Virus genome (UHGV): UHGV-0170560 | DNA length: 39,563 bases | Source: a virus | Direction: 5' to 3' (one strand) | Shown: piece after piece, positions 1 to 25,637 of the stretch | Layout: every line of letters begins with the position of its first letter | Position numbering within the stretch: position 1 is the first letter of the stretch | Notes under the pieces: model-generated | The model's database searches: none | Told to the model about the DNA's origin: nothing | The model's input: the letters and a program-made list of their open reading frames with translations, nothing else | Position numbers and translations under genes: made by a program

Positions 1-29
1 CGGCAGCGTCAGATGTGTATAAGAGACAG
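1..29. other. Sequencing adapter remnant (Nextera/Tn5 read-1 adapter with mosaic end); not biological
   Basis: Bases 1-29 CGGCAGCGTCAGATGTGTATAAGAGACAG equal the Nextera transposase adapter lacking its first 4 nt. Confidence 0.9.
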
Positions 30-109
30 CCTTAATACGCAATACATTTACTTTCCTCTTTTGATGATCTTAAATGTCTTATTTTTCGTAATGTGTATAA
101 CAAGGAATA

Positions 110-628
110 GTGATGAAATTTAAAAAATGTCTTCTGCCTGTGGTAATGTTAGCGTCATTCACTCTGGCAGGATGCCAGTCAAATGCTGATGATCATGCCG
201 CCGATGTTTATCAAACCGATCAACTGAATACCAAACAAGAAACTAAAACCGTTAATATTATTTCCATTCTTCCCGCAAAAGTTGCCGTAGACAACTCCCA
301 AAATAAACGAAACGCACAAGCCTTCGGCGCGCTTATTGGTGCAGTCGCTGGCGGTGTTATTGGCCACAACGTCGGGTCTGGCAGCAATTCCGGAACGACG
401 GCAGGTGCAGTTGGCGGCGGAGCTGTTGGCGCGGCAGCGGGTTCTATGGTGAATGATAAAACCTTAGTGGAAGGTGTTTCTCTAACGTATAAGGAAGGCA
501 CCAAAGTGTATACCTCCACCCAGGTGGGTAAAGAGTGCCAGTTTACGACAGGTTTAGCCGTTGTTATTACCACGACGTATAACGAAACGCGTATTCAGCC
601 AAATACCAAATGTCCTGAAAAGAGCTAA
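110..628 (+). CDS. Lipoprotein with glycine-zipper-like Gly/Ala-rich segment (cargo/moron)
   Basis: 172-aa ORF; AAGGAA RBS before tandem ATG; N-terminal signal with lipobox LAGC; GAVAGGVIG...GGGAVGAAAG stretch. Confidence 0.7.
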   Translation: MMKFKKCLLPVVMLASFTLAGCQSNADDHAADVYQTDQLNTKQETKTVNIISILPAKVAVDNSQNKRNAQAFGALIGAVAGGVIGHNVGSGSNSGTTAGAVGGGAVGAAAGSMVNDKTLVEGVSLTYKEGTKVYTSTQVGKECQFTTGLAVVITTTYNETRIQPNTKCPEKS

Positions 629-643
629 TAATCAGGAGGAGTC

Positions 644-1183
644 ATGAAGAAAGTTTTTCTTTGCGCCATCTTAGCTTCCTTAAGCTATCCGGCTATCGCC
701 TCATCATTGCAGGATCAACTCTCTGCTGTCGCAGAAGCGGAACAGCAAGGTAAAAATGAAGAGCAAAGGCAGCATGACGAATGGGTCGCGGAGCGCAACA
801 GGGAAATCCAGCAAGAGAAGCAACGTCGCGCAAACGCCCAGGCCGCCGCTAACAAAAGAGCGGCAACGGCAGCGGCAAATAAGAAAGCTCGTCAGGATAA
901 ACTGGACGCCGAAGCCTCTGCGGACAAAAAACGCGATCAAAGTTATCAAGATGAGCTACGCAGCTTAGAGATTCAGAAACAAAAACTGGCGCTGGCGAAA
1001 GAAGAAGCCCGCGTTAAGCGAGAAAACGAATTTATCGATCAGGAACTGAAGCACAAAGCTGCGCAAACCGATGTGGTGCAATCTGAAGCTGACGCAAACA
1101 GGAATATGACTGAGGGCGGTCGAGATCTGATGAAAAGCGTGGGCAAAGCAGAAGAGAACAAATCGGACAGCTGGTTTAATTAA
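644..1183 (+). CDS. Secreted charged coiled-coil protein (cargo/moron), function unknown
   Basis: 179-aa ORF 15 nt after previous stop with AGGAGG RBS; Sec-type signal peptide ending AIA; K/E/Q/A-rich body. Confidence 0.6.
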   Translation: MKKVFLCAILASLSYPAIASSLQDQLSAVAEAEQQGKNEEQRQHDEWVAERNREIQQEKQRRANAQAAANKRAATAAANKKARQDKLDAEASADKKRDQSYQDELRSLEIQKQKLALAKEEARVKRENEFIDQELKHKAAQTDVVQSEADANRNMTEGGRDLMKSVGKAEENKSDSWFN

Positions 1184-1224
1184 TCGATGTAAGTAACTTC
1201 AAGCCTATAATTCTTGAAGATAAA

Positions 1225-1254
1225 AAACCCTCTGTAGTAACAGAGGGTTTTGTT
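1225..1254. terminator. Rho-independent terminator, potentially bidirectional
   Basis: Stem CCCTCTG (1228-1234) / CAGAGGG (1241-1247), loop TAGTAA, A-run upstream and T-run downstream; lies between convergent genes. Confidence 0.7.
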
Positions 1255-1402
1255 CATTCATAGTGCAGGGATCAAAATCATTCCCACTCAATTATTTACG
1301 GCAACCATAACCAATTGAGTGATAACATTTTTCCAAAACTTCATTTTTTTAGTACCGTTTTATATACCGTCACCGGAAATCAGTACCATGAAAAATGCCA
1401 TG

Positions 1403-1885
1403 CTATCTTGTCAGGGTGTCATACTGTTTTTCGCAGACTCTTCCGGCTTCGGCTGCCCGGTCAGCATACTCTGCCAGTTGTCTGTTTCTCTCGAGAGATT
1501 TGCTGAGCACGTCGGCAAGCAAAACTCCGGTGTCTGCGGCTGACGTCCCAGCGCCGACAATGGCGTTATACTGCCTGAGCTGCTCACGGATGGCAACGAG
1601 CTGTTTCTGCAACCGGCCAGCGCGAGCGGCAGCATCAAGAGCATCATTGCGCGCCTGGTCGATCCTCTGCTGCGCTTCACGTTCATTGATCGCTTTCTCC
1701 TGTTCGTAGTGCTGACGAACTTTCTCATCTTCGGCTTTGCGCTCTTCCTTCGCCTGCACATACCCGGCGTCGTACTGACGGCTACCGTGCACATTCCAAG
1801 CAACAATTCCGGATATGACCAGAACAGCAAGCATCACCACGATAATTAACTGTTTCCAGTATGCTTTTGCGAATGCCCAGATCAT
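1403..1885 (-). CDS. Rz-like i-spanin (lysis)
   Basis: 160 aa; N-terminal TM helix then charged coiled-coil periplasmic domain; ATGA start/stop overlap with upstream endolysin; embedded lipoprotein ORF in +1 frame. Confidence 0.75.
   Translation of the reverse strand: MIWAFAKAYWKQLIIVVMLAVLVISGIVAWNVHGSRQYDAGYVQAKEERKAEDEKVRQHYEQEKAINEREAQQRIDQARNDALDAAARAGRLQKQLVAIREQLRQYNAIVGAGTSAADTGVLLADVLSKSLERNRQLAEYADRAAEAGRVCEKQYDTLTR
1411..1686 (-). CDS. Rz1-like o-spanin, embedded in Rz in alternate frame
   Basis: Internal Met followed by basic n-region and MMLLMLPLALAGC lipobox, Pro-rich mature part; start ambiguous (alternative ATGs at 1647/1644). Confidence 0.5.
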   Translation of the reverse strand: MNVKRSRGSTRRAMMLLMLPLALAGCRNSSLPSVSSSGSITPLSALGRQPQTPEFCLPTCSANLSRETDNWQSMLTGQPKPEESAKNSMTP

Positions 1886-2511
1886 ACCGCCAGCACCTTA
1901 CTGGCAGTGATGTACCGCGCGCGCCGGTCGTCGATGCCGTTCCGGCCACCATTGATAATCAGAGTTACACGTGCAATATCGCCGGTATACTTCATGCATC
2001 CTTTGCTGGCAAAGAACCACGCTGCGCTACGAGCCGCATATTCGTCATGCGCCAGCAATTCAGGGCTCTCCAGCAGGTCAACCTTCAGACCGTTTCCGCA
2101 ATCACGATAGTTATTCAAACCGGTTATCTGGATAAGCCCGCGCCCACGGTAATTCCAGCCATCGCCGGGAGCATTGTTACCCATGCGTTTGCTGTACACC
2201 AGATTGGCGATCGCTCGCTGGCGCTCGAGTGGCAATGGAGGTTCGCCTGCGCGGCGACCCAATGCGTTGGCCTGTCCCTGAGTGAGACGCCCAGCCCGAA
2301 CGAAGTTAGCCAGTCCGGTGACACTGTAGTTGAAATTCTCCTGCAACCGGATGAAACCACCAGACTCATGCCCGACCTGAGCAATAAACATTGCCTGATC
2401 TTCAGCTTTGCTGATACCAAACTCTTTCATCGCAGAAGTTATATGCGAGAACCAGCGTGCGGCCAGCGCCTCGCTAATACCAGCAGCTCGCTGGAATTGT
2501 TTAATCTCCAT
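1882..2511 (-). CDS. Endolysin, glycoside hydrolase family 19 (chitinase-like lysozyme)
   Basis: 209 aa; motifs QVGHESGGF and NYRGRGLIQITGLNNY match the GH19 catalytic signature; sits between holin and Rz. Confidence 0.85.
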   Translation of the reverse strand: MEIKQFQRAAGISEALAARWFSHITSAMKEFGISKAEDQAMFIAQVGHESGGFIRLQENFNYSVTGLANFVRAGRLTQGQANALGRRAGEPPLPLERQRAIANLVYSKRMGNNAPGDGWNYRGRGLIQITGLNNYRDCGNGLKVDLLESPELLAHDEYAARSAAWFFASKGCMKYTGDIARVTLIINGGRNGIDDRRARYITASKVLAV

Positions 2512-2809
2512 GTTTAGACCTCGTTATTTTGAAAATCTGAACGACGTTACCGCGAGTTTTAAGAACCGCAGCAAACATGACAGCGTTGATAATGACCTCA
2601 GATAAATCCACAGCCATTGGCGTGCGTAACCAGATTGCATAGACGACACGAACAGGAATACTGGCCGCAGCAACAATAAGGAAATAAGCAAGCCACCCTC
2701 CCCATCTTCGGTGTTGTGAACCGTTACGCCGGAATGTGACAACACGAATTGCTATGCCAGTACAAATAAGTGCATTGGTGATAAGCAAAAAATACTCATG
2801 CGTTACCAT
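2501..2809 (-). CDS. Holin-like small membrane protein
   Basis: 102 aa with 2-3 hydrophobic helices and charged C-terminus; overlaps endolysin start by 11 nt. Confidence 0.6.
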   Translation of the reverse strand: MVTHEYFLLITNALICTGIAIRVVTFRRNGSQHRRWGGWLAYFLIVAAASIPVRVVYAIWLRTPMAVDLSEVIINAVMFAAVLKTRGNVVQIFKITRSKHGD

Positions 2810-3155
2810 CGCCTTTTCTCCCCGGAATTAACTCGCGTGGATTATCGGAGCGGTGATAGAGCCAGATGCCAATTCGCACTGCGACGATTGCTGACACGAA
2901 TGCGCCGGCAGAGAAAACAATCCCTTTCTCGAAGGAATCCTGTGTGATGGTAGGGATCAGGCTGGCTATGCCGATAAGAATTGATGCTGCTGGTTTGTAA
3001 AAAAGAAGGCCGCAAAGAAAGCTGAGCATCGACAGGAGTACCCGGCGGCGGATCGGATATTCGACAGCAGAGGTAACAAAAATCACAGCTCCAGCAAGGG
3101 AGCCTAAAGCCACCTCAGGAGGTGCTCCTGCTATAACCGCCGCCAGAGAACTCAT
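2796..3155 (-). CDS. Holin/antiholin-like membrane protein
   Basis: 119 aa, several predicted TM helices, first gene of the lysis cassette; overlaps next gene by 14 nt. Confidence 0.55.
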   Translation of the reverse strand: MSSLAAVIAGAPPEVALGSLAGAVIFVTSAVEYPIRRRVLLSMLSFLCGLLFYKPAASILIGIASLIPTITQDSFEKGIVFSAGAFVSAIVAVRIGIWLYHRSDNPRELIPGRKGDGNA

Positions 3156-3315
3156 GCTAAGCCACTGATTTAAAGACTCATTGGTTATCTAAACTGACAT
3201 AAAAACCACCGTTTAATGTGCATGAAGAACCACCTTAGTATGGGGTTCACCATGCATATTAAACCATATATGAATAGTTATTACCTCTACATCAATTAAA
3301 TCACTATCATATAAA

Positions 3316-5901
3316 TTACATCTGGTTATTAATTTTCATTTCAATATTTTTAATGCGCTCAACCAATCCTCGCATAATGAAACGATCAAGTTCTTGATCG
3401 CGGAATTGCCACAAATCTCCTGCTTTCTTAACTAATTTTTTTTCACCAGTATTCACAGGAACAATGAATTTTTCACCATTTTGATCCGTAATTAACTCAT
3501 CTTTAATGACATCTTCATATACATCATCCCATTTGTCATACCCTATAAATCCATAATCTCGCCAGTCCAGGCCCTCATCCTCTAAAACAGCAATAACTGC
3601 CTGAACAGTGGTGCCAGAGTGCAACCTTTTAGAATCATCATCAATCCATGTCCAGAAACCTAGCAGATCAGCCACTTTAATTGCTGCATTAATTTCAGAT
3701 TTGGTGAATCCGCGAATCGGGTCTTTAAGACGACCATCTGAACTTGACTGGGTTCCTCCGGCAAAATAACCAATGTTATATCGTAGTGATGCGCTACCTA
3801 TATTTGAAGTGGCATCAGCTCCAGGAGTGATTCCCCCTGATGTTGCTATTTGCATTGCTGGAGTAGATCCAGACCCATCAGGTCTGAACTGTAATTGACC
3901 TACACTGTTGTATTGTGTTCTCATGAACCAAGATGTAGCATTGCCATTACTGAGCAGGCCAAGAATAGCATCAGAACCAGATGGAGCCGATACAGTGTAC
4001 ATTCCTGTCTTAGTGAGTGACGTCATGGTTTTTCCATCCTTGCTGACCAATAGTCTGTCGGAGCTTGCATCCATCATCACTTTCCATCCTGTAGACCCAT
4101 CAGCAGCATTCTTCGTAAACTGAATTGATGCGTCACCAATATTCCCATCAGAGCCAAGAATTGCAACGGTATAACCGCCTGCTGGGTCTTTACCCACAAC
4201 TCCAAATCTACCGTTTAGCGGATCGCCTGAAACTATTATTTTTACAGGAATCACTCCGGCAAAATTGTCATTAAATATCTGAGAAATATAATTCATGCGC
4301 ATGCCATAAAAACTAACACCTCTCTTTACATTCTCAGAACCAATAAAAGTCGGAATATCTGAATTTGTAATACCATAAGGTGATTGCTCTACCACACCAC
4401 CATAAAACTGGATGTTGGATGCGTGATCAAATTCTAATGCATGATTAGCTCTGGTTCTAAACTCACAGCCATAAAAGTAATGCCCATTTATTTCAGCGGA
4501 TGTCGCATTAACATCACCATCTATATAAAGGCATCGCCATGTGTTTGCGCTAGAGTAATAAGAAACAAGCTCTTCATGAGACATTGATGCGCGACTGTGG
4601 TGATCAAGGGTATAAATACCACATTTATCTACTCTAGTTCCGCTGAGACCATAACTTGCAGGCCCAGTGTTTGAACCAAGAATTGCTAAACCGACTCGCC
4701 CCATAGTTGACCCACCAGTAATGGTATTGTAATCAGGGTCATCGTTTCCTTGCTTTGACTGAATTATTGTACCTGCTTTTGAAAAGTATCCGAATACACA
4801 AACATCCTCCTGAAGATTTCTTGCAGAGTCATCGTAATAAACCCCACACTCATAATCTGCACGTTGGTCTTCATCAGGTTTTGTGTGATTACCGATGGAA
4901 TCATAACAAATCATGTCTTGAACCACGGCAATGCCTTTAAGGACAGATCCACTTGAACCATATTCTGGAGAAAGAACTCTCACGCAATATCGAACACTTG
5001 CGAAATGATCGTCTCTGTTATCTGTAGTAGCTATCTTTGTTCCTGCTCCAGAAAATATAAACGTAGCACCAGGCATATTTTCTTTTCTACCTTCAGCAAG
5101 AAAGAATTTGTCATCATCAGTACCAAATCCAAGAACAGGAGAACCATTACCAATGAATCGAAAATCACCAGGTATTTCTATACCATCAGAGAATCGATAA
5201 ACCCCATCAGGAACAAAAAAAGTTTTCTTTCCAGATGCAAGCAAAGCCTGCCACTGCGTTAAGTTGTCCGTTTTATAGTCACCTTTTAATCCAAAATCGG
5301 TTATGCTGACTGTATCTCGCATCTTATCCTGGAACGTTCGATATATCGCACCAGAACCATACTGAATAAACCAACCAAAACCACCAACAACTCCGGCGAT
5401 TGCAGCATCAACATAATTACGCATTGAGCGATTATTTACAGCATCCTGCTCAAGTGATGGATCTGCAAGGTTAGAAATTCTGTTTTGCTTTGCATCGTAA
5501 TATTTTGCAAGCAAAGATGGTTTCATCAATGCACGTCTGAACCACCCAAAACATTGCTGGATCAGCATCGTCAGGTAGTCAAAAGCATCTTCATGCACTT
5601 CGGGGAAAAATTTTCCCTGATTGCGAAGGTCTGTCTCCTGCACTACATCAAGCACACGATCTATCGTAATTCGCCATCCAGCAGCAAGCGGCGACGGAAG
5701 AACAACAGAACCGCCACTATAAGTGCCCGCCCCAGTTACCGTATAACCGGTATCCAGAACCAATTCTGTTACGTTCCCGTTCAGGTCAGACACCTGAACA
5801 ACCAGGTCGGATTTTTTGAAAATACGGAAGGTATACGGAAATGATGTCGTAGCGCCGTTACCGGTGTATTCGTTGTGGTCAACTTCGGTTGAGACCGTCA
5901 T
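3316..5901 (-). CDS. Tail fibre/tailspike with T7 gp17-like N-terminal adaptor domain and C-terminal intramolecular chaperone (peptidase S74-like) domain
   Basis: 861 aa; N-terminal ~110 aa resemble the T7 gp17 adaptor region by recollection; C-terminal ~140 aa begin with SSDGRLKD (S-D-x-R-x-K autoprocessing motif); central part AT-rich. Confidence 0.8.
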   Translation of the reverse strand: MTVSTEVDHNEYTGNGATTSFPYTFRIFKKSDLVVQVSDLNGNVTELVLDTGYTVTGAGTYSGGSVVLPSPLAAGWRITIDRVLDVVQETDLRNQGKFFPEVHEDAFDYLTMLIQQCFGWFRRALMKPSLLAKYYDAKQNRISNLADPSLEQDAVNNRSMRNYVDAAIAGVVGGFGWFIQYGSGAIYRTFQDKMRDTVSITDFGLKGDYKTDNLTQWQALLASGKKTFFVPDGVYRFSDGIEIPGDFRFIGNGSPVLGFGTDDDKFFLAEGRKENMPGATFIFSGAGTKIATTDNRDDHFASVRYCVRVLSPEYGSSGSVLKGIAVVQDMICYDSIGNHTKPDEDQRADYECGVYYDDSARNLQEDVCVFGYFSKAGTIIQSKQGNDDPDYNTITGGSTMGRVGLAILGSNTGPASYGLSGTRVDKCGIYTLDHHSRASMSHEELVSYYSSANTWRCLYIDGDVNATSAEINGHYFYGCEFRTRANHALEFDHASNIQFYGGVVEQSPYGITNSDIPTFIGSENVKRGVSFYGMRMNYISQIFNDNFAGVIPVKIIVSGDPLNGRFGVVGKDPAGGYTVAILGSDGNIGDASIQFTKNAADGSTGWKVMMDASSDRLLVSKDGKTMTSLTKTGMYTVSAPSGSDAILGLLSNGNATSWFMRTQYNSVGQLQFRPDGSGSTPAMQIATSGGITPGADATSNIGSASLRYNIGYFAGGTQSSSDGRLKDPIRGFTKSEINAAIKVADLLGFWTWIDDDSKRLHSGTTVQAVIAVLEDEGLDWRDYGFIGYDKWDDVYEDVIKDELITDQNGEKFIVPVNTGEKKLVKKAGDLWQFRDQELDRFIMRGLVERIKNIEMKINNQM

Positions 5902-6059
5902 GTTAAATCTCCAGATAGTCGCAGCACCCGTTGCGCCGCATATCTGGTTATTCTATTACCTGAAAAACCACATATGGATAGATAACCCATAAATACGAAA
6001 AGATATTACCTTTCAGGTGATTTGCAAAACGTGCTGGATAGCAAACAAATTATTTGATA

Positions 6060-6075
6060 CTGTATATTTATACAG
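6060..6075 (+). promoter_or_regulatory. LexA (SOS) box
   Basis: CTGTATATTTATACAG = CTGT-N8-ACAG with AT-rich spacer, flanked TA..TT, about 20 nt upstream of the 6097 start codon. Confidence 0.65.
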
Positions 6076-6096
6076 TTATTGCATGGAGAAGATAAG

Positions 6097-6354
6097 ATGC
6101 AGCAGTATCACTATCCACTGGAAGACGGATTTACCGAAAGGATTCACACGCCGGGAGGCGTCAGATCACTGGTGGAGGGATCGCACTTGATGAAATTACT
6201 CCGGGATCTCGATAAGGATGGATTTAATGTCGATGGCCCACTTGCCGAACTGACTGCACTGATTAACTACGTCACCAGCTCACAGATGTCTATGCGGGAT
6301 CTGCAAACACATCTCGACTATTGTGCCGAACAATTACGAAAACAAACCAGATAA
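6097..6354 (+). CDS. Small protein paralogous to the C-terminal domain of the downstream antirepressor
   Basis: 85 aa from ATG with GGAGAA RBS (track ORF begins at an upstream TTG); aligns with the last ~65 aa of the 6670..7380 protein (shared pattern IH.P.GV..L.E.S.LM.LL..L..DG..V.G..AELT....Y.......RD.QTH..Y). Confidence 0.6.
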   Translation: MQQYHYPLEDGFTERIHTPGGVRSLVEGSHLMKLLRDLDKDGFNVDGPLAELTALINYVTSSQMSMRDLQTHLDYCAEQLRKQTR

Positions 6355-6490
6355 GGTTTGCAATTACCAAGTGGAGTGCTTATATTTACCTTTGAGGTGA
6401 ATTTACATCGCACTCCTCTTATGCCATAGTAATCGGGCACTGGCAAAATCCAGTGCCGGGATTGGCGTCCCGGGTTACTAAGTGGCGCAT

Positions 6491-6514
6491 ACCACGCCAG
6501 ACGTGGTTTTTTTA
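6491..6514 (+). terminator. Rho-independent terminator-like hairpin
   Basis: Stem ACCACG/CGTGGT with loop CCAGA followed by TTTTTTT. Confidence 0.6.
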
Positions 6515-6669
6515 TGCGTTAAGCACAGCTATATCCGAATTATGGTGGGCTGGGCAGGGGTCCGAAAGGACGCCGGTACCACTTAGGCCGGTACGCCAAC
6601 CTTGTCCAGTTCACCACCAGTAATTGGCGTTGCGGTGGTGATTAAAATCACTAAGTGGAGATAACCACC

Positions 6670-7380
6670 ATGGCTAATGCTCAAACTGCCATCTTCAAAT
6701 TTGAATCTGTTAACCCTATCCGTTCCATCATTATCGATGGCCAACCATGGTTTGTAGCCCAAGACGTTTGTAGTGCGCTGCGTATCCAAAACGTCACCCA
6801 AGCACTTGAAAAACTGGATGATGATGAAAGGTCTATGTTCAACATAGGGCATGAACATCGTGCAATTTTTGACAGCCGAGTAAAAGAGATCAACATCATC
6901 TCCGAGTCAGGCCTCTACACACTGATCCTCCGCTGCCGCGACGCAGTGACACCAGGCACTATCCCCTACCGCTTTCGTAAATGGGTTACAGGTGAGGTTC
7001 TTCCTCAGATCCGCCGCACCGGAAGTTACATTAAAAACTCGCTCCCGCAGGAAGAACGCATAAAGATGGTTGCCGACCAGGTAGCCAACGCCACGGCGTC
7101 AGCAGTAATGCAGGCGATGAAGATAGAGAACAAAACCTACAGCGCCCCGCTGCAGCCCGGCTACCGCAGCCTGATTCACTCGCCGTCTGGTGTTCTCGGC
7201 CTGACGGAGAACTCACTGCTGATGAATCTGCTGAACCAGTTACAGGACGACGGGCACGACGTATCGGGCGCGGCGGCGGAGCTGACCACCATGTTCTGCT
7301 ACATCGTCGGTGTGAGTAAATGCCTGCGTGATATCCAGACCCACGCGGAATACATCAACGACAAGGCAGGGTTCTTCTGA
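6670..7380 (+). CDS. Antirepressor (Bro-N domain protein)
   Basis: 236 aa from ATG preceded by GGAG; N-terminal Bro-N hallmarks (WFVAQDVCSAL, ISESGLYTLIL, FRKWVTGEVLPQIRRTGSY). Confidence 0.8.
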   Translation: MANAQTAIFKFESVNPIRSIIIDGQPWFVAQDVCSALRIQNVTQALEKLDDDERSMFNIGHEHRAIFDSRVKEINIISESGLYTLILRCRDAVTPGTIPYRFRKWVTGEVLPQIRRTGSYIKNSLPQEERIKMVADQVANATASAVMQAMKIENKTYSAPLQPGYRSLIHSPSGVLGLTENSLLMNLLNQLQDDGHDVSGAAAELTTMFCYIVGVSKCLRDIQTHAEYINDKAGFF

Positions 7381-7504
7381 CGGGCGGCGGCACAGGGATG
7401 TGCCTTTAAATAATTCTGTACGATTGCAGACAGGGGGGTGAATAGAGTACTATTACCTTACGGGTGATCCATAGCGATTAGGCACCGATACAGGAGGAGC
7501 CCAC

Positions 7505-7537
7505 ATGAGAAAATTTGACGAGTACGAAGGCGTTTAA
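7505..7537 (+). CDS. Possible 10-codon leader peptide (MRKFDEYEGV)
   Basis: Strong RBS CAGGAGGAG 5-8 nt upstream; located between an operator-like palindrome and a terminator hairpin; too short to call confidently. Confidence 0.25.
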   Translation: MRKFDEYEGV

Positions 7538-7555
7538 CATTCGGATAGTTTAATG

Positions 7556-7579
7556 ACGGGGCCATTAGGCCCCGTTTTC
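7556..7579 (+). terminator. Rho-independent terminator / possible attenuator
   Basis: Stem ACGGGGCC/GGCCCCGT with loop ATTA followed by TTTT; immediately upstream of the 7597 gene. Confidence 0.6.
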
Positions 7580-7596
7580 ATGTCTGGAGACAGTTT

Positions 7597-8136
7597 GTGT
7601 TAAGTGAAGAAATGCAATTTGCCATGGCTGTGGCTCAAATCGTAAGTGCAGTCGCGGTTTCGCTTGGCTTGTTCATAGCTATCGCTACTATTATTTATAA
7701 TGTAAATACAGCGAGAAAAGTACACACTTCAGTATTCCTTGGTGAAAGCAGGTTTGATGTAGATTATAAGAAAGGCCTATCTACTATGCGCCGCATTCAC
7801 GAATCGAACAAATCATTCCGCTCTTATATGTATCCAAGCAATGGGCAGGCTGATCTTACGGATGAAGAAAAGATAGAGAAGAGAGAAATAATTTACTGTC
7901 TAGGTTTCTACGAACGCATGGCTGTGAGCGTGAAGCGGAAAACTTATGATGAGACCATGATTAAGGAAGTATTTTACAGCTCCGTTGTAAATAACTATCA
8001 GATTGCGCTACCTCTTATACAAGCTATTAGAGAAAAAGAAAACATAAACACATATTTTAAAGAATATGAATGGTTGGCAACACGATGGAAGGATTGTCCA
8101 TTGAAGGATAAATCCCCATGGTACAAGTTTTGGTAA
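7597..8136 (+). CDS. Membrane-anchored accessory protein; candidate superinfection-exclusion/defence protein
   Basis: 179 aa, GTG start with GGAG RBS; N-terminal TM helix; markedly AT-rich relative to the structural genes; position matches the P22 immI/sieA neighbourhood next to the tailspike. Confidence 0.55.
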   Translation: MLSEEMQFAMAVAQIVSAVAVSLGLFIAIATIIYNVNTARKVHTSVFLGESRFDVDYKKGLSTMRRIHESNKSFRSYMYPSNGQADLTDEEKIEKREIIYCLGFYERMAVSVKRKTYDETMIKEVFYSSVVNNYQIALPLIQAIREKENINTYFKEYEWLATRWKDCPLKDKSPWYKFW

Positions 8137-8158
8137 GCCCGCAGCGCGGGCTTTTTTG
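8137..8158 (+). terminator. Rho-independent terminator
   Basis: Stem GCCCGC/GCGGGC with loop AGC followed by TTTTTT. Confidence 0.75.
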
Positions 8159-8229
8159 TGGACGAAACAAAAGTCAGTGCTACACTCATTGACGCCACAT
8201 TGAGGTGGCTTATAGATGGAAATTTCACA

Positions 8230-8391
8230 ATGAAAAAAGCATTTGCTGCACTGTTCGTTTTGTTGTCTCTGGTAGCTTCAACTCAGGCCTTTGCCGGTCG
8301 TTGTCAGCACGACAGCGATACTGCCGCTGACGGCTCCCGCTGCGGTGGGCGTTCTGCGGATTCCCGCCCGGGCGGCGGTGGCATTCGTTAA
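8230..8391 (+). CDS. Small secreted peptide, function unknown
   Basis: 53 aa from internal ATG; clean Sec signal MKKAFAALFVLLSLVASTQAFA; two Cys in the ~31-aa mature part. Confidence 0.45.
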   Translation: MKKAFAALFVLLSLVASTQAFAGRCQHDSDTAADGSRCGGRSADSRPGGGGIR

Positions 8392-8413
8392 AAACAAGGC
8401 CGCGAAAGCGGCC
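8391..8413 (-). terminator. Rho-independent terminator for the minus-strand virion operon
   Basis: Stem GGCCGC/GCGGCC with loop GAAA; on the minus strand it is followed by a T-run. Confidence 0.6.
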
Positions 8414-8422
8414 TGTGACATG

Positions 8423-8719
8423 TCACGTTCCTTTTCTGAATGATAGCCGTTCGAAAAATGATGACATTCCACCGCAGACAATAGCAAAGATGATCCCACC
8501 AAAGAAGAGAAGGCCAGCCTGCCACCACTCCCACCGCCATACATCCACAGCACCAACCATACCAACAATCGCTCCAACAAATGGAATATAGCTCACGATG
8601 AAAGCAATGGGGGCTGCAATTATCCAGTGCAATCCCCACCATGATTCAAGCCCAGCCATAATTGCTGCCAACTGAAAAAGGCCAACGACGATATAAACAA
8701 TGAATCCTATCGCTTGCAT
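8423..8719 (-). CDS. Small integral membrane protein
   Basis: 98 aa, 3 hydrophobic helices, GGTG RBS; last gene of the minus-strand virion operon. Confidence 0.55.
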   Translation of the reverse strand: MQAIGFIVYIVVGLFQLAAIMAGLESWWGLHWIIAAPIAFIVSYIPFVGAIVGMVGAVDVWRWEWWQAGLLFFGGIIFAIVCGGMSSFFERLSFRKGT

Positions 8720-8731
8720 GTAGTCACCTAT

Positions 8732-8905
8732 TTACCCAGTAAAAATCAGAGGCCTCCCCTCAATAAGGCTTGCAACAAGAACTATTCCCTGCACAACAAA
8801 GATGAACCAGCAAATAGCTTGAGTCTGAGGGTTAAGAAAATATTTGTAGCGGTCAATAAATAACAACCCACCAGAAATTATCACACTCAAAATAATTAAA
8901 AACAC
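8732..8905 (-). CDS. Possible small membrane protein (57 aa, GTG start)
   Basis: Below the track cutoff; my own translation gives VFLIILSVIISGGLLFIDRYKYFLNPQTQAICWFIFVVQGIVLVASLIEGRPLIFTG with AGGAAG RBS upstream. Confidence 0.3.
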   Translation of the reverse strand: MFLIILSVIISGGLLFIDRYKYFLNPQTQAICWFIFVVQGIVLVASLIEGRPLIFTG

Positions 8906-8914
8906 AACACTTCC

Positions 8915-11389
8915 TTATTGCGGAGTGACATCCTGAGGTCGCCACCAGTATGTCTGATTAAACTCTTTCTTCGAACGTTGCTCCATTTTACGCAAATAGC
9001 CTGGTGAAAAATACTCCTGCATCTGGTTAAAGATCATATGATCGAGAGCCGCCTTTAAGTACCAGAGATTCGCACCTGGCATCAAACCTTTCCCCAGCTT
9101 CACCAGATCACCACCAGTCTGCTCACTCTTCCCTTCCACAGCATTTAACGGTATGCCCTGAGCAATCTTCACTACGTCATCAACCAGACCAGCTACCGGG
9201 CCAAGCATCGACGCCAGCGCGCCGCTTCCGTACCTAGTGTGATCTGACAATAAAAAGTCACCGTAAAGGCCAAGGCCACCACCTTTCAGTAGAGCACCAA
9301 GCCAGAATTTTGCGGCACCTTCTCCTGTCATCTCTCGAGGATTACGACCAGACGCAAGGTCGTTAAGTTGCTGCGACAAAGCGCCAAGAATGGTCGTACT
9401 GGCAATAAACGTCGCAATATATGCCGCACGCCCACCAGCAGACGGCATACTCATAGCGCGTGACCAGTGACGCATAACAACCGAGATAGGGAACGATTTA
9501 AACAGGAAAACACTTCTCGTTAATTCACCTTTCCATGTTCCACGCTGAATACCAGAACCGGTTATCAGTTGCTCACGTGCTCCCGGTGTAATAATAGCCA
9601 TATCAACTTCTTCAGTTACGGCACCGAGCAGTTTACGCATTGCCTCAAATTTCACTCGTTCAGGCTCACCAAGATGTTTAACTGCTGAATCAGGGATACG
9701 CATAATGCTTTCCGGTGTCAGCATCGTATTATTACCGTTCCCCCAGTCCTCCTGTTGCGCCAGCTTCCATACGCTCCAGTCTGTGTCAGTAATCCCTTTG
9801 CTTTTCAGGATACGAAAATCAGAGTCATCGAGGCTACGAAGGTCTGGTGTCCGTGACACTACTTCTCCCAGGCTTCCCATCATGGTTACGCCATAGGCGC
9901 GCTTGTGCGCATCTGACCATGCTGTAAGCCCACTGGCACGCATTACCGCCGTTGCCGCCCAACGAGACACAGACGGCCCCATATTATCCATCGCCCAGCG
10001 GTTAACGCTGCCAAGTAGAGATTCCATCGCCAGGCCAGCGCGGCGCGCCCGCGCAAGCTCAGTACGGTTCGTTGGGTCCATAGCTTCAAGCTGGTTGCGA
10101 AATAACTGGTTCATTGGAAGGTTGGTAACCTTCGCAGACAGATACATGGTTCCAAGATCAGAGAACGATGACAGCAACGCGGATCCGAGTCTGCTGGCAA
10201 CCAGCCAGTTGCGGATATTGTCAGACCATCGCGCGATGTGCGGATTCGCTACAGGCTGTGTTTTTCCGGAAATAAAGTTGTACAGATTCTCTGTGTTGTT
10301 CGCCAGCCGCTCGACTTTACCGGTTTTACTCGGGTTAGCTGTTGCCGTTTCTGCCTTAACCTGATCAAGAAGGGAGCGGAAAACATGATCGGGGTTTGGG
10401 CCATATGTTTCCACCAGCGCAATATCTTTACTGATACCTTCCAGGTGACCGACCATGATTTCCCATAGAGAGCGATCGCCATAAAGTTGCTGATATTGCA
10501 GATAGGAATCTGCATCTTTGAAATGTATCTGTCGTGATGCATTACCACGGTTAGCACGTACGCCGGAAATTCGCATTCCGGTATCAGTAAGCTTATTCAG
10601 CCCACCAGTAGCGATCGTGTTATAAGCCTCTCCAAGAAATGCAGACAACTCGGCATCGTTCATCAGTTGTCCATCGGCTCGGGTATAATATTTGCGATCC
10701 AGCTTACCTATAACATCGCTAACCCATTTATCTTTTGATACCGCCCCAACCTTTTCCATAGAATGATGTTGAGGGATCCCCCAGTTTTCGAGATAGCCAA
10801 TGTCCCCACCAGCATCATTAAACCGGCGGCGCAGTAGATCTGTCACTTCTCTCCACGCCTTAGCACCTTTTCTTGCTTTAGCATTGCCAGTATTTTGCCC
10901 TCGCATTTCATATACCAGGTCACGCACGCCCGCTTCATCTTCAAACAGGCCAAAAAAGCGAGGATCAACTGCTTCAAATGCCTCCTGCAATTGACTCAAT
11001 GCATAATCACGAGTGGCTTTTGTTCTGGATTCAACAGAGAGGAAATTCGATTTACCGTCTGCATTAAAAGCAATAGTACGGTTAAGAGCGCCAAGTTTCC
11101 CATCAGCCCCTTGATAGCTATTGATAAATTTATCCAATCTCTGACGTGCGGCTATAGTGAGGGCCACACGACGTTTCTTTAATGCCGCTTCTCGCTGTAA
11201 TTCTTCAGATGCCAATTGTGCTGCACGATACAACCGTTCTGATTCGGAAAGTTGTCGCCACGACATCGGGTCATCACGAGCAATGGAGCGCATATTTCGA
11301 TAAATGCGGTCTTCAATGTTCTGTATTTCTCGCGCCGTTAACGTGCGCTGCGCCGCCTGCTGGACCGCTTGTATACATTCCTGTCTCAT
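8915..11389 (-). CDS. Internal virion/ejection protein (T7 gp16-like position)
   Basis: 824 aa; translationally coupled within the long minus-strand virion operon. Confidence 0.65.
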   Translation of the reverse strand: MRQECIQAVQQAAQRTLTAREIQNIEDRIYRNMRSIARDDPMSWRQLSESERLYRAAQLASEELQREAALKKRRVALTIAARQRLDKFINSYQGADGKLGALNRTIAFNADGKSNFLSVESRTKATRDYALSQLQEAFEAVDPRFFGLFEDEAGVRDLVYEMRGQNTGNAKARKGAKAWREVTDLLRRRFNDAGGDIGYLENWGIPQHHSMEKVGAVSKDKWVSDVIGKLDRKYYTRADGQLMNDAELSAFLGEAYNTIATGGLNKLTDTGMRISGVRANRGNASRQIHFKDADSYLQYQQLYGDRSLWEIMVGHLEGISKDIALVETYGPNPDHVFRSLLDQVKAETATANPSKTGKVERLANNTENLYNFISGKTQPVANPHIARWSDNIRNWLVASRLGSALLSSFSDLGTMYLSAKVTNLPMNQLFRNQLEAMDPTNRTELARARRAGLAMESLLGSVNRWAMDNMGPSVSRWAATAVMRASGLTAWSDAHKRAYGVTMMGSLGEVVSRTPDLRSLDDSDFRILKSKGITDTDWSVWKLAQQEDWGNGNNTMLTPESIMRIPDSAVKHLGEPERVKFEAMRKLLGAVTEEVDMAIITPGAREQLITGSGIQRGTWKGELTRSVFLFKSFPISVVMRHWSRAMSMPSAGGRAAYIATFIASTTILGALSQQLNDLASGRNPREMTGEGAAKFWLGALLKGGGLGLYGDFLLSDHTRYGSGALASMLGPVAGLVDDVVKIAQGIPLNAVEGKSEQTGGDLVKLGKGLMPGANLWYLKAALDHMIFNQMQEYFSPGYLRKMEQRSKKEFNQTYWWRPQDVTPQ

Positions 11390-11394
11390 TTAAT

Positions 11395-13197
11395 TTAACC
11401 TCTCAAGAAACACGCCACAGCAACATCAAACAGGCTGGAATCCTGTATTGCCTGCTCACTTTCCCTGTTCGCTTCATCCAGTACTTCACGCGCACTGCGC
11501 GATTGTGGATTACCATCATCATCCAGCACGGTGATTATCATGTCCGGAGATTCAAGCAGCGAGTCTTCAGCTATACGCAGATCAATATCTCCTGCCGGAT
11601 CTGCCATCATTTTTTGTTCTGTCTGTTGCAATATCTTACCGGGCTCAAAAGGAGCTACTTCGTCTGGCGTCCTGACCTCTGCTGTTTTATAGAATGAAAC
11701 AGCCTGAGCATTAAGTTCACTTTCTGCCTGCTGTCGCCGTGCCAGTTCTGCTCGAGCTTCAAAAAACTGACCTCCAGGCTCGTGCGGCGCCAACGCGTTA
11801 CGGGAAAATTCCAGGCGTTCTTGTGCCTGCCGGATTCGTTGATCAATATCGCGAAGTCTGGCCTGTTTATCTGATCGAGCACGAGACAAAGCTTTACCGC
11901 TACCGGTTGGCTCTTCTGCAAGAATTTGTGCACGCTGTTCAGTGAGATTGTCGATAATTCGTTGGCTATTAGCGATTTCAGACTGGTAAACCTGTCTATC
12001 GCCACGCGGCAAAAGCTGCGCAGCCTGTTCTTCAAGCAACCGATTTTCGATAGCGCGCGCCGTTACTCCATCATCTACAGATGACAGAGCCTCATTAACT
12101 GCCTGAGACAGCAGATTCTTGCGCCCAGGAATTTCACTGAAAGATGCAGACTCAACAATGCTGGCAACGTCTACAGGTCTCCCCTGGCTAACATCAGACA
12201 TAGCTTTTCGCAGAGCCTGAATGTGAGAATTGCGCGAAAGCACGTTGATCGGCACGCCGGGAGCAATATCAATTTCAGCATGATGAGCGGCATTCGCCGC
12301 CAGTGCAGCATCGATATCAACTGGTGAAAAATTTGGTGCGCTTGTAGACTCGCCGCGAGAGTTAATAAATCTGCCGACACCACCAAACGCCACCCCAAGA
12401 ACAGCATCAATAGCAATTGCCTGTCGATCCAACACATCATACTGGTTAGCCATTTCGCTATAGCCACCATCACGAAGCGTTTTTGCAGTAAGCCCACGCT
12501 GTGCCATACCGAACGCAATATTTGTACCTGCGGCATAGGCAATATCTGGCGTTGCACGTACTGCTGTTGCTGCGGCGCGTCGCACTGAACTCTCACTCGT
12601 CCGCGCAAGCTGAGCCGCCACACCTTCCGCCAGCGCACCACCAGCACGTAACCCGAGGCTCATAGGGATCAGTGTTCCGGCACCAGCAGTAATACCCTGC
12701 ACTAATCCCGCTTCCTGCGCCGTCCTGAAATCAACACCCTGTGCTGTCAGCCGTTCAAACTCAGAAAAACCCTGTAGCGAAGTTACCGCCGCAGCACCTC
12801 CGACCGGACCACCGAGCGTTGTACCGATAACAGCCTGCCCGCCCATATCGAACAACCCATAAAGAACCTGCCCGGCGGTTCCGGTTGTCGCGGCATCAGG
12901 CGTCAGCCGCTTAACCTGCTGCTCTGCTAGTTTTCTCTGCTCGGCAATGTATGAAACTGAAGTGTCATTGAGCGAGGTGTTTTCGTTAACAAACTGAGCA
13001 ATCGGGGATACGATTTTATCCATCCCTGCCCAGAGCAACTGATCAGGCTTTGCCACCAGCCCGGAGTACAAACCAGACAATGCCGCTCCTACAGCATTGT
13101 CGAAAAAACCAACATCGCTGTTAAAGCCCGCTGGATTTGATGCTGCTTCGTCAAGTTGCTGATTCTGGTTTACTGGATTAAGGCCAAAGTAACTCAT
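11395..13197 (-). CDS. Internal virion/ejection protein
   Basis: 600 aa, Ala/Gly-rich N-terminal part and coiled-coil C-terminal part; start abuts upstream stop. Confidence 0.65.
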   Translation of the reverse strand: MSYFGLNPVNQNQQLDEAASNPAGFNSDVGFFDNAVGAALSGLYSGLVAKPDQLLWAGMDKIVSPIAQFVNENTSLNDTSVSYIAEQRKLAEQQVKRLTPDAATTGTAGQVLYGLFDMGGQAVIGTTLGGPVGGAAAVTSLQGFSEFERLTAQGVDFRTAQEAGLVQGITAGAGTLIPMSLGLRAGGALAEGVAAQLARTSESSVRRAAATAVRATPDIAYAAGTNIAFGMAQRGLTAKTLRDGGYSEMANQYDVLDRQAIAIDAVLGVAFGGVGRFINSRGESTSAPNFSPVDIDAALAANAAHHAEIDIAPGVPINVLSRNSHIQALRKAMSDVSQGRPVDVASIVESASFSEIPGRKNLLSQAVNEALSSVDDGVTARAIENRLLEEQAAQLLPRGDRQVYQSEIANSQRIIDNLTEQRAQILAEEPTGSGKALSRARSDKQARLRDIDQRIRQAQERLEFSRNALAPHEPGGQFFEARAELARRQQAESELNAQAVSFYKTAEVRTPDEVAPFEPGKILQQTEQKMMADPAGDIDLRIAEDSLLESPDMIITVLDDDGNPQSRSAREVLDEANRESEQAIQDSSLFDVAVACFLRG

Positions 13198-15707
13198 TGC
13201 GGAATATCTCCGGAGAATCTCTGACGCTTCTGTGTCAGATCAAGAACAACAGGAGAACCATCATCCTTCAGCAGATATCCAGTCCCAAGTTTTACCAAGT
13301 ACTGACTATCGCCGTAACTTTGCAAACCATACTGACCAGGCGGTGTTTTTATCCCTGTGCCGACAACTTGTTCATTCCAAGCCTGATTAACCTGCTTATC
13401 GAATTGCTCTGCAGACATTCCCCACGGCAAAAGAACATTCCCCATTCCGTTATAGTCATGCACGCCACCTGTAGCTACGTTAACAGCCTGTTTCCAGATA
13501 TCATTGTCAATTTCGCCTGATACCACGCCTTTTTTCGCCATCACACCAGCGTAATAGTCCTTTGCGATCTCGTATGCCATTGATGCCCCCTGAGCATCAC
13601 CAGCAAATGCATCCTTCACCATGTCAGAAAACTCAAGGCGAAGATCAGCATCTTTAGGCATCGGAATACCTTTCGCATCATCAGTACCTTTACGAGCCGC
13701 CGCGCCAGCAAGAATTGTCTGCGCAGCGGTTTCAGGTGACACGGAAACATCAGGATTAAACCAGTTTTTTTCTGCCAAAATACCACCAGGTTTATCCATC
13801 AGTATCCCGGCAACGGCAGCAGATGGAGCGTTGGCGCTGATCTGCTGTAGTGCTGACATATACACCTGCCCACCACCAGTGCTCTGCCTGATGGTATCGA
13901 GATATGCTGCCTGTTGGGAAACGGGCGCATCACGAAAGAAAACACCGATCTGATTGGCCTCGTCTTTGGAAAAGAAAGTCAGTGGAGTGCCATATGACTT
14001 GGCAAGGTCACTGACCTGAGCGGCACGCAAGGCAACGCTCTGTCCAAAGTTATCCTTATTGCTCATGTCGATAGGCTTTGCCTGTCCGGCGGCAAGAGAG
14101 AACTGCACAGGATCCGATTGCCGCTGCTTTATCACCTGATTTGCAGCCGAAACAACGTTGTCATAAAGAGCTGCGCGTGCCGCATACCCCTCCCCTGTCT
14201 CACCAGTATCCGGGCGTAATTGCTCAACATATGCTGTAATGCTGCTTGTCGGCATGTTGCGGAAAGAGCCTATATACTGTCCGGCGATCTGCGTATTTCT
14301 GAACTCGGTATATCGCAGGTTTCCTTCTCTGACGCCATAAGCTGCAATAAAATCAGCCTCACCAGGTGGATTAGGAAATTCAACGCCACGCATATACGCA
14401 GCCGTCGCATCGCGAACCTGGCTGTCAATCATCGTTTTATATTCAGCCTGCTGCTGCCGACGCAGTTGATCCGCCTGTCGCATAAAACTTGCCTGCGCCT
14501 CAGGAGAGGCCGCATCGAATGCTGCATTACCGGTATAGCGTTTGGTGTTGGTTGGAATTGTTGATAAACCAAGTGCTGCACTGACACCAGCAGTTAACTG
14601 CTGATCACTGTATGGCTGGCTACCGTTCTCATGATGGATAATGGCTGCACAAAGCGCCTTCAGGGTATCAGGATTTGATGCATCGAGAGGCTCATCAGCA
14701 GAAACGCCAAGTTGTTCGCATACTGCTTTGATATACGACATAGTGTCATTTTTATCAGTAGGCGGTGCCCAGCGATTAATTATCTCGCTGACTGTATCAA
14801 TACCCTGCCGCTGATACGACATCAGGTTCCGCCCTAATGCACGAATCCCGTGTTCAGGTGTTTCGAATTTAGCAAATCGACCATCATCACCGGTCTGGCC
14901 TACCCACGGATTAGTTTTGCTGTATTCGAGATTTCCTGGGTTATTGTTGCGTATGCCACGGGCACGCTCGGAAGAATCACTATCTGCTACAGCACGGCGA
15001 GCTCCAGCAGAAGTATCACTTAACTCGCCATTACTTTGGATGAATGCGGTCGCATTGTTTGCCGACCACTGGGACAATGCGGCATCAGCAACCTTCTCTT
15101 TAAACTCGATTTTCTTGGCCTGGATTTGCTCGTCGCTCCAGCCATGCGCAATGCCGTAATCCTCAATTTGCTGGAAAGTTTGCTTATTAGCCAATACATA
15201 TGCGGCGTTGTCGCCATACAATGCTGCGGCATTTTTACCATTGTTCAGCAGCGTAGCCTGAAACTGGCCTTCTTCGTAGGCATTTATTTGCCCTATCTCG
15301 TGCCGCCCGGCCTGCGTAGTGAACTGAATGCGCTGCTGCTGCGCCTGCTGCATGAAAGCATTACGAGCCTGTTCATCCGGCAGCGACATAGCCAGTTGTT
15401 CGATCTGAGCATCAAACTGCTGCGTATACTCCTGACCTTTTCCAATAGCATTTTTCCCTTTCAGGTTAAGCAATCCTGTTTCAGGATTATTCAGCAGATC
15501 GCTGCTTATCTGACTGAGGTTAAGAGATGCCTCCTGAGCCAGAGCGATATTGGCACGCTGTTTTGCCTGACCAAAAACATCAATTGCCTCTGCCCCTGCC
15601 CGAACAAAAGCATCACCAATACCTGGCTGAGAAAACGCCTGCAAGCCTGCTGACTGAACTCCACGGCTCTCAACCTGACGTCCGGATACTGTTGGTACGA
15701 CTGGCAT
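13194..15707 (-). CDS. Internal virion/ejection protein (T7 gp15-like position)
   Basis: 837 aa from ATG overlapping the upstream stop (TAATG) with GGAGG RBS; the track ORF extends 25 codons further upstream. Confidence 0.65.
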   Translation of the reverse strand: MPVVPTVSGRQVESRGVQSAGLQAFSQPGIGDAFVRAGAEAIDVFGQAKQRANIALAQEASLNLSQISSDLLNNPETGLLNLKGKNAIGKGQEYTQQFDAQIEQLAMSLPDEQARNAFMQQAQQQRIQFTTQAGRHEIGQINAYEEGQFQATLLNNGKNAAALYGDNAAYVLANKQTFQQIEDYGIAHGWSDEQIQAKKIEFKEKVADAALSQWSANNATAFIQSNGELSDTSAGARRAVADSDSSERARGIRNNNPGNLEYSKTNPWVGQTGDDGRFAKFETPEHGIRALGRNLMSYQRQGIDTVSEIINRWAPPTDKNDTMSYIKAVCEQLGVSADEPLDASNPDTLKALCAAIIHHENGSQPYSDQQLTAGVSAALGLSTIPTNTKRYTGNAAFDAASPEAQASFMRQADQLRRQQQAEYKTMIDSQVRDATAAYMRGVEFPNPPGEADFIAAYGVREGNLRYTEFRNTQIAGQYIGSFRNMPTSSITAYVEQLRPDTGETGEGYAARAALYDNVVSAANQVIKQRQSDPVQFSLAAGQAKPIDMSNKDNFGQSVALRAAQVSDLAKSYGTPLTFFSKDEANQIGVFFRDAPVSQQAAYLDTIRQSTGGGQVYMSALQQISANAPSAAVAGILMDKPGGILAEKNWFNPDVSVSPETAAQTILAGAAARKGTDDAKGIPMPKDADLRLEFSDMVKDAFAGDAQGASMAYEIAKDYYAGVMAKKGVVSGEIDNDIWKQAVNVATGGVHDYNGMGNVLLPWGMSAEQFDKQVNQAWNEQVVGTGIKTPPGQYGLQSYGDSQYLVKLGTGYLLKDDGSPVVLDLTQKRQRFSGDIPQ

Positions 15708-16252
15708 TATAATCCTCCGGGTAATCTGGTTCCTGCTGCTGCCCCGATTGGCGCAGGAGTGCTTTGAGTAAACGGACTCCACGTCCCACCAAACATCTGG
15801 TACGCACCGTATGCCTTCAGAGGCGCAGTGAGCAATGTTGTTGCTGCTCCCACATTCCCCTGTTTACGGGCTGAACTGGCTTCTGCTTTATAGTTGGCAG
15901 CCTGAACCTGATAACCGTAAGCCTCGCGTTGCGCGTTATTCACCGTCGTCAGCGAATCAAGAGCGCCAAACTGGGCAGTGTCGCCAAATATATCCAGCGC
16001 GTTACCTGTAGATAAATCAGCGCCGGCAGCCCCCATTGTCGCCGCCTGTGTACCAAGCCGCTGTCGGGTCTCTCTGCGCCGTTGCTCAGCTTCAGCGTTA
16101 CCTCTGTTTATTGCATCATTTGCCTGAGCAGTGGCTATATCTGCGTTCGCTTCTGCAACCTTCGAGGCATACTTTCCCTGTTGGTACTGGGTGTATGCCT
16201 GAATGCCACTCATGGCGAGCATTGCGCCACCAGCAATAACCGGATCGCACAT
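15707..16252 (-). CDS. Internal virion protein (T7 gp14-like position)
   Basis: 181 aa, Ala/Gln-rich; start overlaps upstream stop. Confidence 0.6.
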   Translation of the reverse strand: MCDPVIAGGAMLAMSGIQAYTQYQQGKYASKVAEANADIATAQANDAINRGNAEAEQRRRETRQRLGTQAATMGAAGADLSTGNALDIFGDTAQFGALDSLTTVNNAQREAYGYQVQAANYKAEASSARKQGNVGAATTLLTAPLKAYGAYQMFGGTWSPFTQSTPAPIGAAAGTRLPGGL

Positions 16253-21993: not shown

Positions 21994-22001
21994 TTCCTCT
22001 C

Positions 22002-22703
22002 TTATTTGCCATAGAGCACTTCGGCCGCACTACGCTGGCCTTCATTACCACCGGTGACCATGCCATCTTCAGACATCGCCTTTCCGATTTTCACGAACGT
22101 TTTAACCAGATCAGGGTGATTACCCAGCCCGGTGGTGTTCAGATATTCTTTGAGTTCAGGTGTCCCGAACTGGTCAAGCGCACGCTGTGCGGCGCTAAGG
22201 TTAGAAATCAACTTGTCGCCACCGATTTCTTTGTCAGCTTTTACATCAGCAGCCCACTGCTCGGTCGTTTTCTGCCAGGCTTCTGCCTGACGCTGCTGCA
22301 CACCTGCCAGAATCTTCGGATAAGCATCAACCAGCTTTTGCGCTTGCTCGTTGGTCAGGTTAAGGTCTCGCGCCACCGGCTCGAATTCCTTCAACGCTTC
22401 TGTATCCAGCTCTACGCCTTCGGCAGCCTGAAACTCGTACTTCTCAGGCGCACCATCTGGTTTATCGCCGTCCTTTTTTTCATCCTGCTTATCGTTTTCA
22501 GACTTTTTGTCATCAGTAGGTTTATCGCCATCAGCAACAGGTTGTGGCTTATCACCTTCCTGTTGTGATGGCTCACCAACTGGAGCAGGGTTATCACCTG
22601 CAGGCGCTGACGATTCTGACGCAGCCGGAGCTGCTCCACCATCGACTGGTTGCTCATTGCAAAGACGGCGATACAGCAAACGCTCAAATAAATTCATGAT
22701 CAC
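22002..22703 (-). CDS. Scaffolding protein
   Basis: 233 aa, acidic low-complexity Pro/Asp/Lys-rich middle and helical C-terminus, between portal and capsid. Confidence 0.65.
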   Translation of the reverse strand: MIMNLFERLLYRRLCNEQPVDGGAAPAASESSAPAGDNPAPVGEPSQQEGDKPQPVADGDKPTDDKKSENDKQDEKKDGDKPDGAPEKYEFQAAEGVELDTEALKEFEPVARDLNLTNEQAQKLVDAYPKILAGVQQRQAEAWQKTTEQWAADVKADKEIGGDKLISNLSAAQRALDQFGTPELKEYLNTTGLGNHPDLVKTFVKIGKAMSEDGMVTGGNEGQRSAAEVLYGK

Positions 22704-24672: not shown

Positions 24673-24686
24673 TTCAATGACTCCGG

Positions 24687-25397: not shown

Positions 25398-25439
25398 GAA
25401 TCACGCCTAAGGACCGTGATGCCAGAAGTTCAAGGGCTT

Positions 25440-25584: not shown

Positions 25585-25637
25585 GCCTGTAGGTTACCTT
25601 ACAGGTATCATCGAAATTCACATAGCAAGGAGGAATT

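Follow-up and report, generated by a model that had tools for sequence, protein, structure and literature searches.

Nextera adapter sequence at both ends of a contig carrying a truncated phiV10-like prophage of Escherichia coli

Our analysis has shown that the window, by which we mean the whole 39,563-nt stretch of DNA that was studied, consists of an i5-side Nextera adapter, genomic DNA, and a second i5-side adapter followed by the index S522, with both mosaic ends directed towards the insert. Both termini are almost certainly untrimmed Illumina Nextera (Tn5 tagmentation) adapter that was carried into the contig by an assembler. Five features by which such an artefact is recognized were found here, namely a mosaic end, an A14 tail, a catalogued index, a terminal and outward position, and absence from independent sequence of the same locus. 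In total, the artefact makes up 70 of the 39,563 bases. This adapter contamination is a known and ordinary artefact and is not biological. An earlier, sequence-only reading of this DNA had correctly described the left adapter and had passed over the right one; the matching adapter and index at 39523-39563 are what the present work adds.

Results

Adapter sequence at the left terminus

Positions 1-29 of the window (CGGCAGCGTCAGATGTGTATAAGAGACAG) reproduce the 33-nt Nextera read-1 transposase adapter (TCGTCGGCAGCGTCAGATGTGTATAAGAGACAG) from its fifth base to its end, with identity at 29 of 29 bases. Given the base composition of the window, the chance of this 29-mer occurring at a fixed position is 2.3e-18 and its expected count anywhere, on both strands, is 1.8e-13. 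Two parts of the adapter can be distinguished:

1-10, + strand: 3′ part of the A14 / read-1 sequencing-primer tail, CGGCAGCGTC; exact, 10 of the 14 nt of TCGTCGGCAGCGTC
11-29, + strand: 19-nt Tn5 mosaic end, AGATGTGTATAAGAGACAG; 19/19, the sole + strand copy at ≤3 mismatches

The first 4 nt of the A14 tail are missing because the contig begins there, leaving 29 of the 33 adapter nt, and the insert-proximal side of the mosaic end lies towards the genomic DNA. When the window was compared base by base with an E. coli sequence (L002), identity was 6/29 over positions 1-29 and 71/71 over positions 30-100. Likewise, when the first 3 kb were searched by megablast in a set of 5,426 complete E. coli genomes, the top matches all started at query base 30. 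The sequence-only reading had assigned 1-29 to the Nextera read-1 adapter with its Tn5 mosaic end, and both the assignment and the coordinates proved exact.

Adapter and index sequence at the right terminus

The other end of the window carries the same adapter on the opposite strand, where all 33 nt are reproduced exactly, as their reverse complement, at 39523-39555, and the adapter is followed by an index:

39523-39541, - strand: second 19-nt Tn5 mosaic end, reading CTGTCTCTTATACACATCT; 19/19, exact
39542-39555, - strand: complete 14-nt A14 / read-1 primer tail, reading GACGCTGCCGACGA; exact reverse complement of TCGTCGGCAGCGTC
39556-39563, - strand: i5 index S522 (TTATGCGA), reading TCGCATAA; identified from a published primer table (PMC9010798)

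S522 is a Nextera XT v2 i5 index, and its published primer is AATGATACGGCGACCACCGAGATCTACAC[TTATGCGA]TCGTCGGCAGCGTC (PMC9010798); the same pairing of the S522 name with TTATGCGA is found in a second publication (PMC7589761). Since the 8-mer that follows the A14 tail is S522, the last base of the window is also the last base of the index, and the P5 flow-cell sequence would come next. The terminal 41-mer of adapter and index matches at 41 of 41 positions, with a fixed-position chance of 3e-25. Identity to a reference sequence (L001) was 51/52 up to 39522 and 9/41 beyond it, and alignments obtained by megablast of the last 3 kb stop at window positions 39521-39524. Ten contigs encoding an MT-A70 methyltransferase identical in protein sequence to that of the window all part from it at 39521/39522, and nine of them carry on past the junction with a common sequence (AGGGCATCACCAGCAGATTTAAG...).

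There were no further copies of the mosaic end in the window at ≤3 mismatches. We rejected a 12-mer at 13567-13578 (ATCTCGTATGCC) as internal adapter; it matches reverse-complemented P7 by chance and has no adjoining adapter. This 12-mer is part of a phage structural gene, and trimming should leave it in place.

Mosaic ends in this arrangement would also be seen if the contig ended in real transposon copies belonging to the strain's genome, as after an in-vivo Tn5/IS50 or EZ-Tn5 insertion. In keeping with this, positions 11-29 and 39523-39541 are the recognition end of Tn5 transposase, and its outer end lies against genomic DNA as it does in a real insertion. However, the end is the synthetic mosaic end, an engineered hybrid that differs from the outside end at 3 positions and from the inside end at 4. 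Neither of these natural IS50 ends was present in the window at ≤2 mismatches. Further, the would-be transposon interior is an A14 primer tail and S522, followed elsewhere by P5, and holds no transposase or resistance gene. The two real ends show no 9-bp Tn5 target duplication (CCTTAATAC versus AGCATGAAC), and a search of the 5,426 complete E. coli genomes for the 41-mer gave no match with the E-value limit set as high as 10. In addition, identical or near-identical DNA from independent assemblies is without an insertion at either site. We consider an insertion in vivo to be extremely unlikely.

Genomic DNA between the adapters

The DNA enclosed by the two adapters matched E. coli genomes and phages by megablast. 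Its main features are as follows:

30-39522, no strand: real DNA, 39,493 bp; E. coli chromosome segment with a phiV10/epsilon15-like prophage
110-628, strand not given: yfgH, E. coli chromosome, untouched by adapter
644-1183, strand not given: yfgI, E. coli chromosome
1276-1292, + strand: 17-bp att core AATCATTCCCACTCAAT, the true prophage/host boundary; duplicates the 3′ end of guaA (...IEWE stop)
38870-39520, strand not given: MT-A70 methyltransferase gene, the last prophage gene in the window, untouched by adapter
39517-39522, + strand: remnant of a DUF1382 gene, ATGAAC, its first two codons, as placed by the gene tables of L001 and L161-L171

Host chromosome spans position 30 to about 1275 and phage homology runs from 1276 onwards, so the window holds a prophage in its integrated state, flanked on one side by 1.2 kb of host DNA. 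In complete genomes, the sequence leftward of base 30 leads to yfgG, pdeF and ppx, and the sequence rightward of 39522 leads to a 195-bp DUF1382 gene, a 1,251-bp tyrosine integrase gene and guaA. The partner att 17-mer overlaps the guaA stop codon (...PPATIEWE stop, in L171) and lies 1634-1650 nt past the real right end. About 1.6 kb is thus missing on the right, comprising the DUF1382 gene, the integrase gene and the guaA-side att. What is left of the DUF1382 frame runs into the adapter and then reaches a stop, giving MNLSLIHI.

These findings bear on whether the window could have a biological terminal inverted repeat, or end at the terminus of a linear phage or plasmid or at a cos, pac or att site. 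The window is about the size of a phage, and the pair 1-29 and 39523-39551 is its only perfect inverted repeat. Nevertheless, that repeat consists wholly of adapter, and no related phage genome has it at its physical ends. Host chromosome with yfgH and yfgI takes up the left 1.2 kb, related phage records align only from 1276, and the att core at 1276-1292 has its partner about 1.6 kb past the right end. All ten of the MT-A70 contigs run on to the integrase gene and guaA, nine of them by way of the DUF1382 gene. As for an att site, it is the 17-mer at 1276-1292, and not 1-29, that recurs as a direct repeat at the prophage boundaries. A terminal structure of this kind is vanishingly improbable. 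The view put forward in the sequence-only reading, that the left terminus is neither an att nor a cos site nor the end of a genome, agrees with the position of base 30, which sits 80 nt upstream of chromosomal yfgH, and with that of the att core.

Several other observations were made on this segment. The 3′ end of guaA is the phage integration site, and the phage brings a replacement 3′ end together with a terminator-like hairpin; the original hairpin has been displaced to 1215-1260, adjoining yfgI. A completeness tool would overrate the intactness of the "phage" in the window, 1.2 kb of which is host DNA. The top phiV10-type phage records cover 78-83% of window positions 1-25000. An 861-aa tailspike is encoded at 3316-5901 (- strand), with weak pectate-lyase-like and Peptidase_S74 (C-terminal chaperone) Pfam matches; the exact tailspike protein was read on only 6 contigs, and it may represent a rare receptor-specificity allele. 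Lastly, three tandem 24-nt units (ATCCCGTTTTTGGGATCATTCAAC; 100%, 100% and 75% identity) are present at 34067-34138, inside an HTH_36/DnaT-like replication gene at 33655-34470 (- strand). These repeats look like iterons of a lambda-style origin located within the initiator gene.

Independent sequence of the same locus

Two independent assemblies cover the locus. The first is a 43,526-bp metagenome scaffold (ENA ERZ28624579, scaffold_218; L158) that is 100.000% identical to the window over 30-15901; in place of the left adapter of the window, it continues for 53 more bases as ordinary E. coli sequence. With this scaffold reading through 29|30 into normal chromosomal sequence, the earlier statement that the left terminus is a library artefact is borne out. 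The second is an isolate contig of 147,655 bp (RZVK01000026.1), which is 99.987% identical over 30-15901 and 99.972% identical over 21833-39522. The two are collinear, with a constant offset of 95487-95489, and the isolate contig reads through both junctions into the chromosome, reaching yfgG, pdeF, ppx and ppk to the left of base 30, and the DUF1382 gene, the integrase gene and guaA to the right of 39522. Read-through on 100%-identical DNA applies to the left junction only, and the evidence for the right junction comes from RZVK01000026.1 (99.97% identical) and the ten MT-A70 contigs.

Three additional contigs, all of them low-coverage SPAdes contigs (3.5-5.4x), are 100% identical to the window and end in adapter at other places. 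One (L159, ERZ653770) ends at window position 9235 with the read-1 adapter. In the other two, both from ERZ654257, the adapter is of the read-2 type and is accompanied by an i7 index and P7; of these, L160 ends at 6270, whereas L173 has its adapter junction at 29631|29632. Since adapters are joined to identical DNA at three other window positions, the adapter is not tied to a genomic site. The presence of the identical prophage on adapter-ended contigs also indicates that it was sequenced in several untrimmed Nextera metagenome libraries. The i7 index on L160 and L173 was read as ATCTCAGG; N727 was considered as its identity and rejected, as N727 has a different sequence in the PMC9010798 primer table.

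The sequence-only reading had suggested testing for a circular or permuted genome; in such a genome 39522 would be joined to 30, with the adapters masking the junction. At 39.5 kb, the window is indeed close in size to phiV10-type genomes (39.1-39.9 kb). Against such a junction, the longest exact overlap of the two real ends is 0, and in RZVK01000026.1 these ends lie about 39.5 kb apart and go on into different genes. Moreover, with 1.2 kb of host DNA and no integrase, the window is not a phage-genome unit. A circular origin is exceedingly improbable, and the junction raised for testing in that reading was not borne out.

Another possibility accepts the adapters as artefact and takes the break points to be real DNA ends, those of a packaged or mis-excised linear molecule that carried yfgH-yfgI and most of the prophage. 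It is established that tagmentation under-represents the true ends of molecules and that contigs tend to stop nearby, and host DNA is present on one side only. In contrast, the metagenome scaffold reaches 53 nt further left and is longer than the window, and the adapter-ended siblings of the window stop at three unrelated internal sites. Because these three sites are unrelated, adapter-capped ends appear to arise wherever coverage is thin. We find a packaged or mis-excised molecule very unlikely. The same low standing is given to a laterally packaged fragment with yfgH-yfgI and the prophage minus its integrase, in which a collapse of coverage would let adapter read-through survive.

Occurrence of the 41-mer on unrelated contigs

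The terminal 41-mer was found in 34 IMG/VR stretches and in at least 120 GTDB genome stretches, the latter from Collinsella, Clostridiales, Planctomycetaceae, Limnohabitans, Peribacillus and others. The matches listed comprise 163 occurrences in 154 stretches (L003-L156) from unrelated organisms. Every one of these 163 listed occurrences is ≤74 nt from an end and faces outward, and reverse-complemented P5 (GTGTAGATCTC...) follows the index in 152 of the 155 that have further bases. The genomic 9-mers adjoining the adapter are also diverse, with 160 distinct sequences at the 163 listed junctions. The window itself was not among the IMG/VR matches to the 41-mer or among those listed for GTDB, and searches with its right junction in the JGI metagenomes and with its left junction in IMG/VR did not recover it either.

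Over the 9 bp beside the mosaic end, the bases at these 163 junctions are biased position by position, and the bias is roughly palindromic (chi-square p down to 3e-9 against the local background). Position -1 favours C and position -9 favours G; A is favoured at -2, T at -8, a purine at -4, a pyrimidine at -6 and A/T at -5. Such a footprint would be expected of a transposase that acts as a dimer and makes cuts staggered by 9 bp. Tn5 favours G and C at the outermost positions of its 9-bp target.

Sources of the 41-mer include IMG/VR metagenome 3300045988 and, in GTDB, UMGS and SRR12456171 MAGs, among others, and several contigs in the IMG/VR and GTDB sets carry it at both ends. Evidently, public catalogues of viruses and MAGs include whole assemblies for which the reads had not been trimmed. 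One IMG/VR contig of 11,462 bp (L016, IMGVR_UViG_3300045988_015885) is bounded by an exact terminal inverted repeat of 304 bp, in which adapter and index come first at both ends and real sequence follows. This repeat is probably a fold-back assembly artefact, and the contig could pass for a complete viral genome bounded by inverted terminal repeats.

Spurious annotation

Five ORFs of ≥20 aa in the window rely on adapter bases:

13-123, + strand: 36-aa ORF MCIRDSLNTQ..., ATG inside the mosaic end; spurious
39394-39561, - strand: 55-aa ORF MRSSAASDVYKRQ..., ATG inside the i5 index; spurious
39397-39543, + strand: ORF ending ...NLSLIHI and stop, uses adapter bases; spurious
39459-39563, + strand: ORF ending ...VSYTHLTLPTIA and stop, uses adapter bases; spurious
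39465-39539, - strand: ORF MCIRDR..., uses adapter bases; spurious

Because the adapter stands in opposite orientations at the two ends, it also creates a false 29-bp perfect terminal inverted repeat. This was the sole perfect inverted repeat returned by the repeat finder for the window, with arms at 1-29 and 39523-39551 that are 100% complementary. The sequence-only reading had warned that any ORF or repeat call touching the adapter would be spurious, and these five ORFs and one inverted repeat are the calls to which the warning applies.

Discussion

We can propose how the two adapters came to be part of the contig based on the established workings of Nextera libraries. In vitro, Tn5 carrying A14-ME and B15-ME oligonucleotides would have attached the mosaic end where it cut the DNA, at 29|30 in one library fragment and at 39522|39523 in another, unrelated one, and index PCR would then have added S522 and P5. 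With inserts that fell short of the read length, read 2 would have run on into ME-A14-index-P5, and the reads would have been left without adapter trimming. At a point of low coverage or at a branch in the graph, the assembler would have extended the contig along the adapter read-through, and this extension would have halted because adapter k-mers are common to thousands of reads. Both ends of the window are i5-side, which fits read-2 read-through on opposite strands. As there are two adapter types and hence a 50% prior chance of matching ends, no weight is placed on the match. Nothing in the sequence speaks against this account.

The adapters could make the contig pass for a complete linear phage genome or for one bounded by inverted terminal repeats. 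Trimming the window to 30-39522 and taking 1276-1292 as the prophage edge clears the false repeat, the spurious ORFs and the genome-end reading. Peptide motifs encoded by the adapter (MCIRDS, SDVYKRQ, VSYTHLTLP and LSLIHI) can also seed false protein families. With the 41-mer present on well over a hundred IMG/VR and GTDB contigs, screening of both collections would be worthwhile. VecScreen/UniVec and NCBI FCS-adaptor serve to catch adapter contamination of this kind.

The prophage in the window is one of the phiV10 / epsilon15-like (Uetakevirus-type) prophages that integrate at the 3′ end of guaA in E. coli; its place is between yfgI and guaA, and the 17-bp att core is present. phiV10, phiv142-3, HEMP4 and related epsilon15-like phages are about 97% identical to it from 1276 onwards, over the structural genes. 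Unlike the full phiV10 / epsilon15-like prophages, it is without the DUF1382 gene, the integrase gene and the guaA-side att. With respect to its termini, the window shares with genuine Tn5 / IS50 ends a 19-nt end that is recognized by the same transposase, and the same geometry of end and target. It differs from them in that its interior is sequencing primer and index (with flow-cell sequence elsewhere) and in that the joining took place in vitro.

Illumina adapter contamination of deposited assemblies is well documented (PMC13182109). Similar to the adapter and barcode contamination described for GenBank (PMC13182109), the window has library oligonucleotides that were kept near the termini after incomplete trimming and that have spread into public records and their annotation. 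That survey concerned Oxford Nanopore adapters, whereas the window is a product of Illumina tagmentation, and its junctions are therefore transposase cut sites with the target-site bias of Tn5. The closest likeness is to read-1, i5-side contamination from Nextera and Nextera XT libraries, which has the same A14 tail and mosaic end with a catalogued index in the expected place. In comparison with the full Nextera adapter, the left copy has 29 of 33 nt and the right copy stops before P5, and nothing else of substance sets them apart. Taken together, Nextera contamination is terminal, faces outward, is absent from independent assemblies and caps many unrelated contigs, and the same is true of the adapter sequence in the window.
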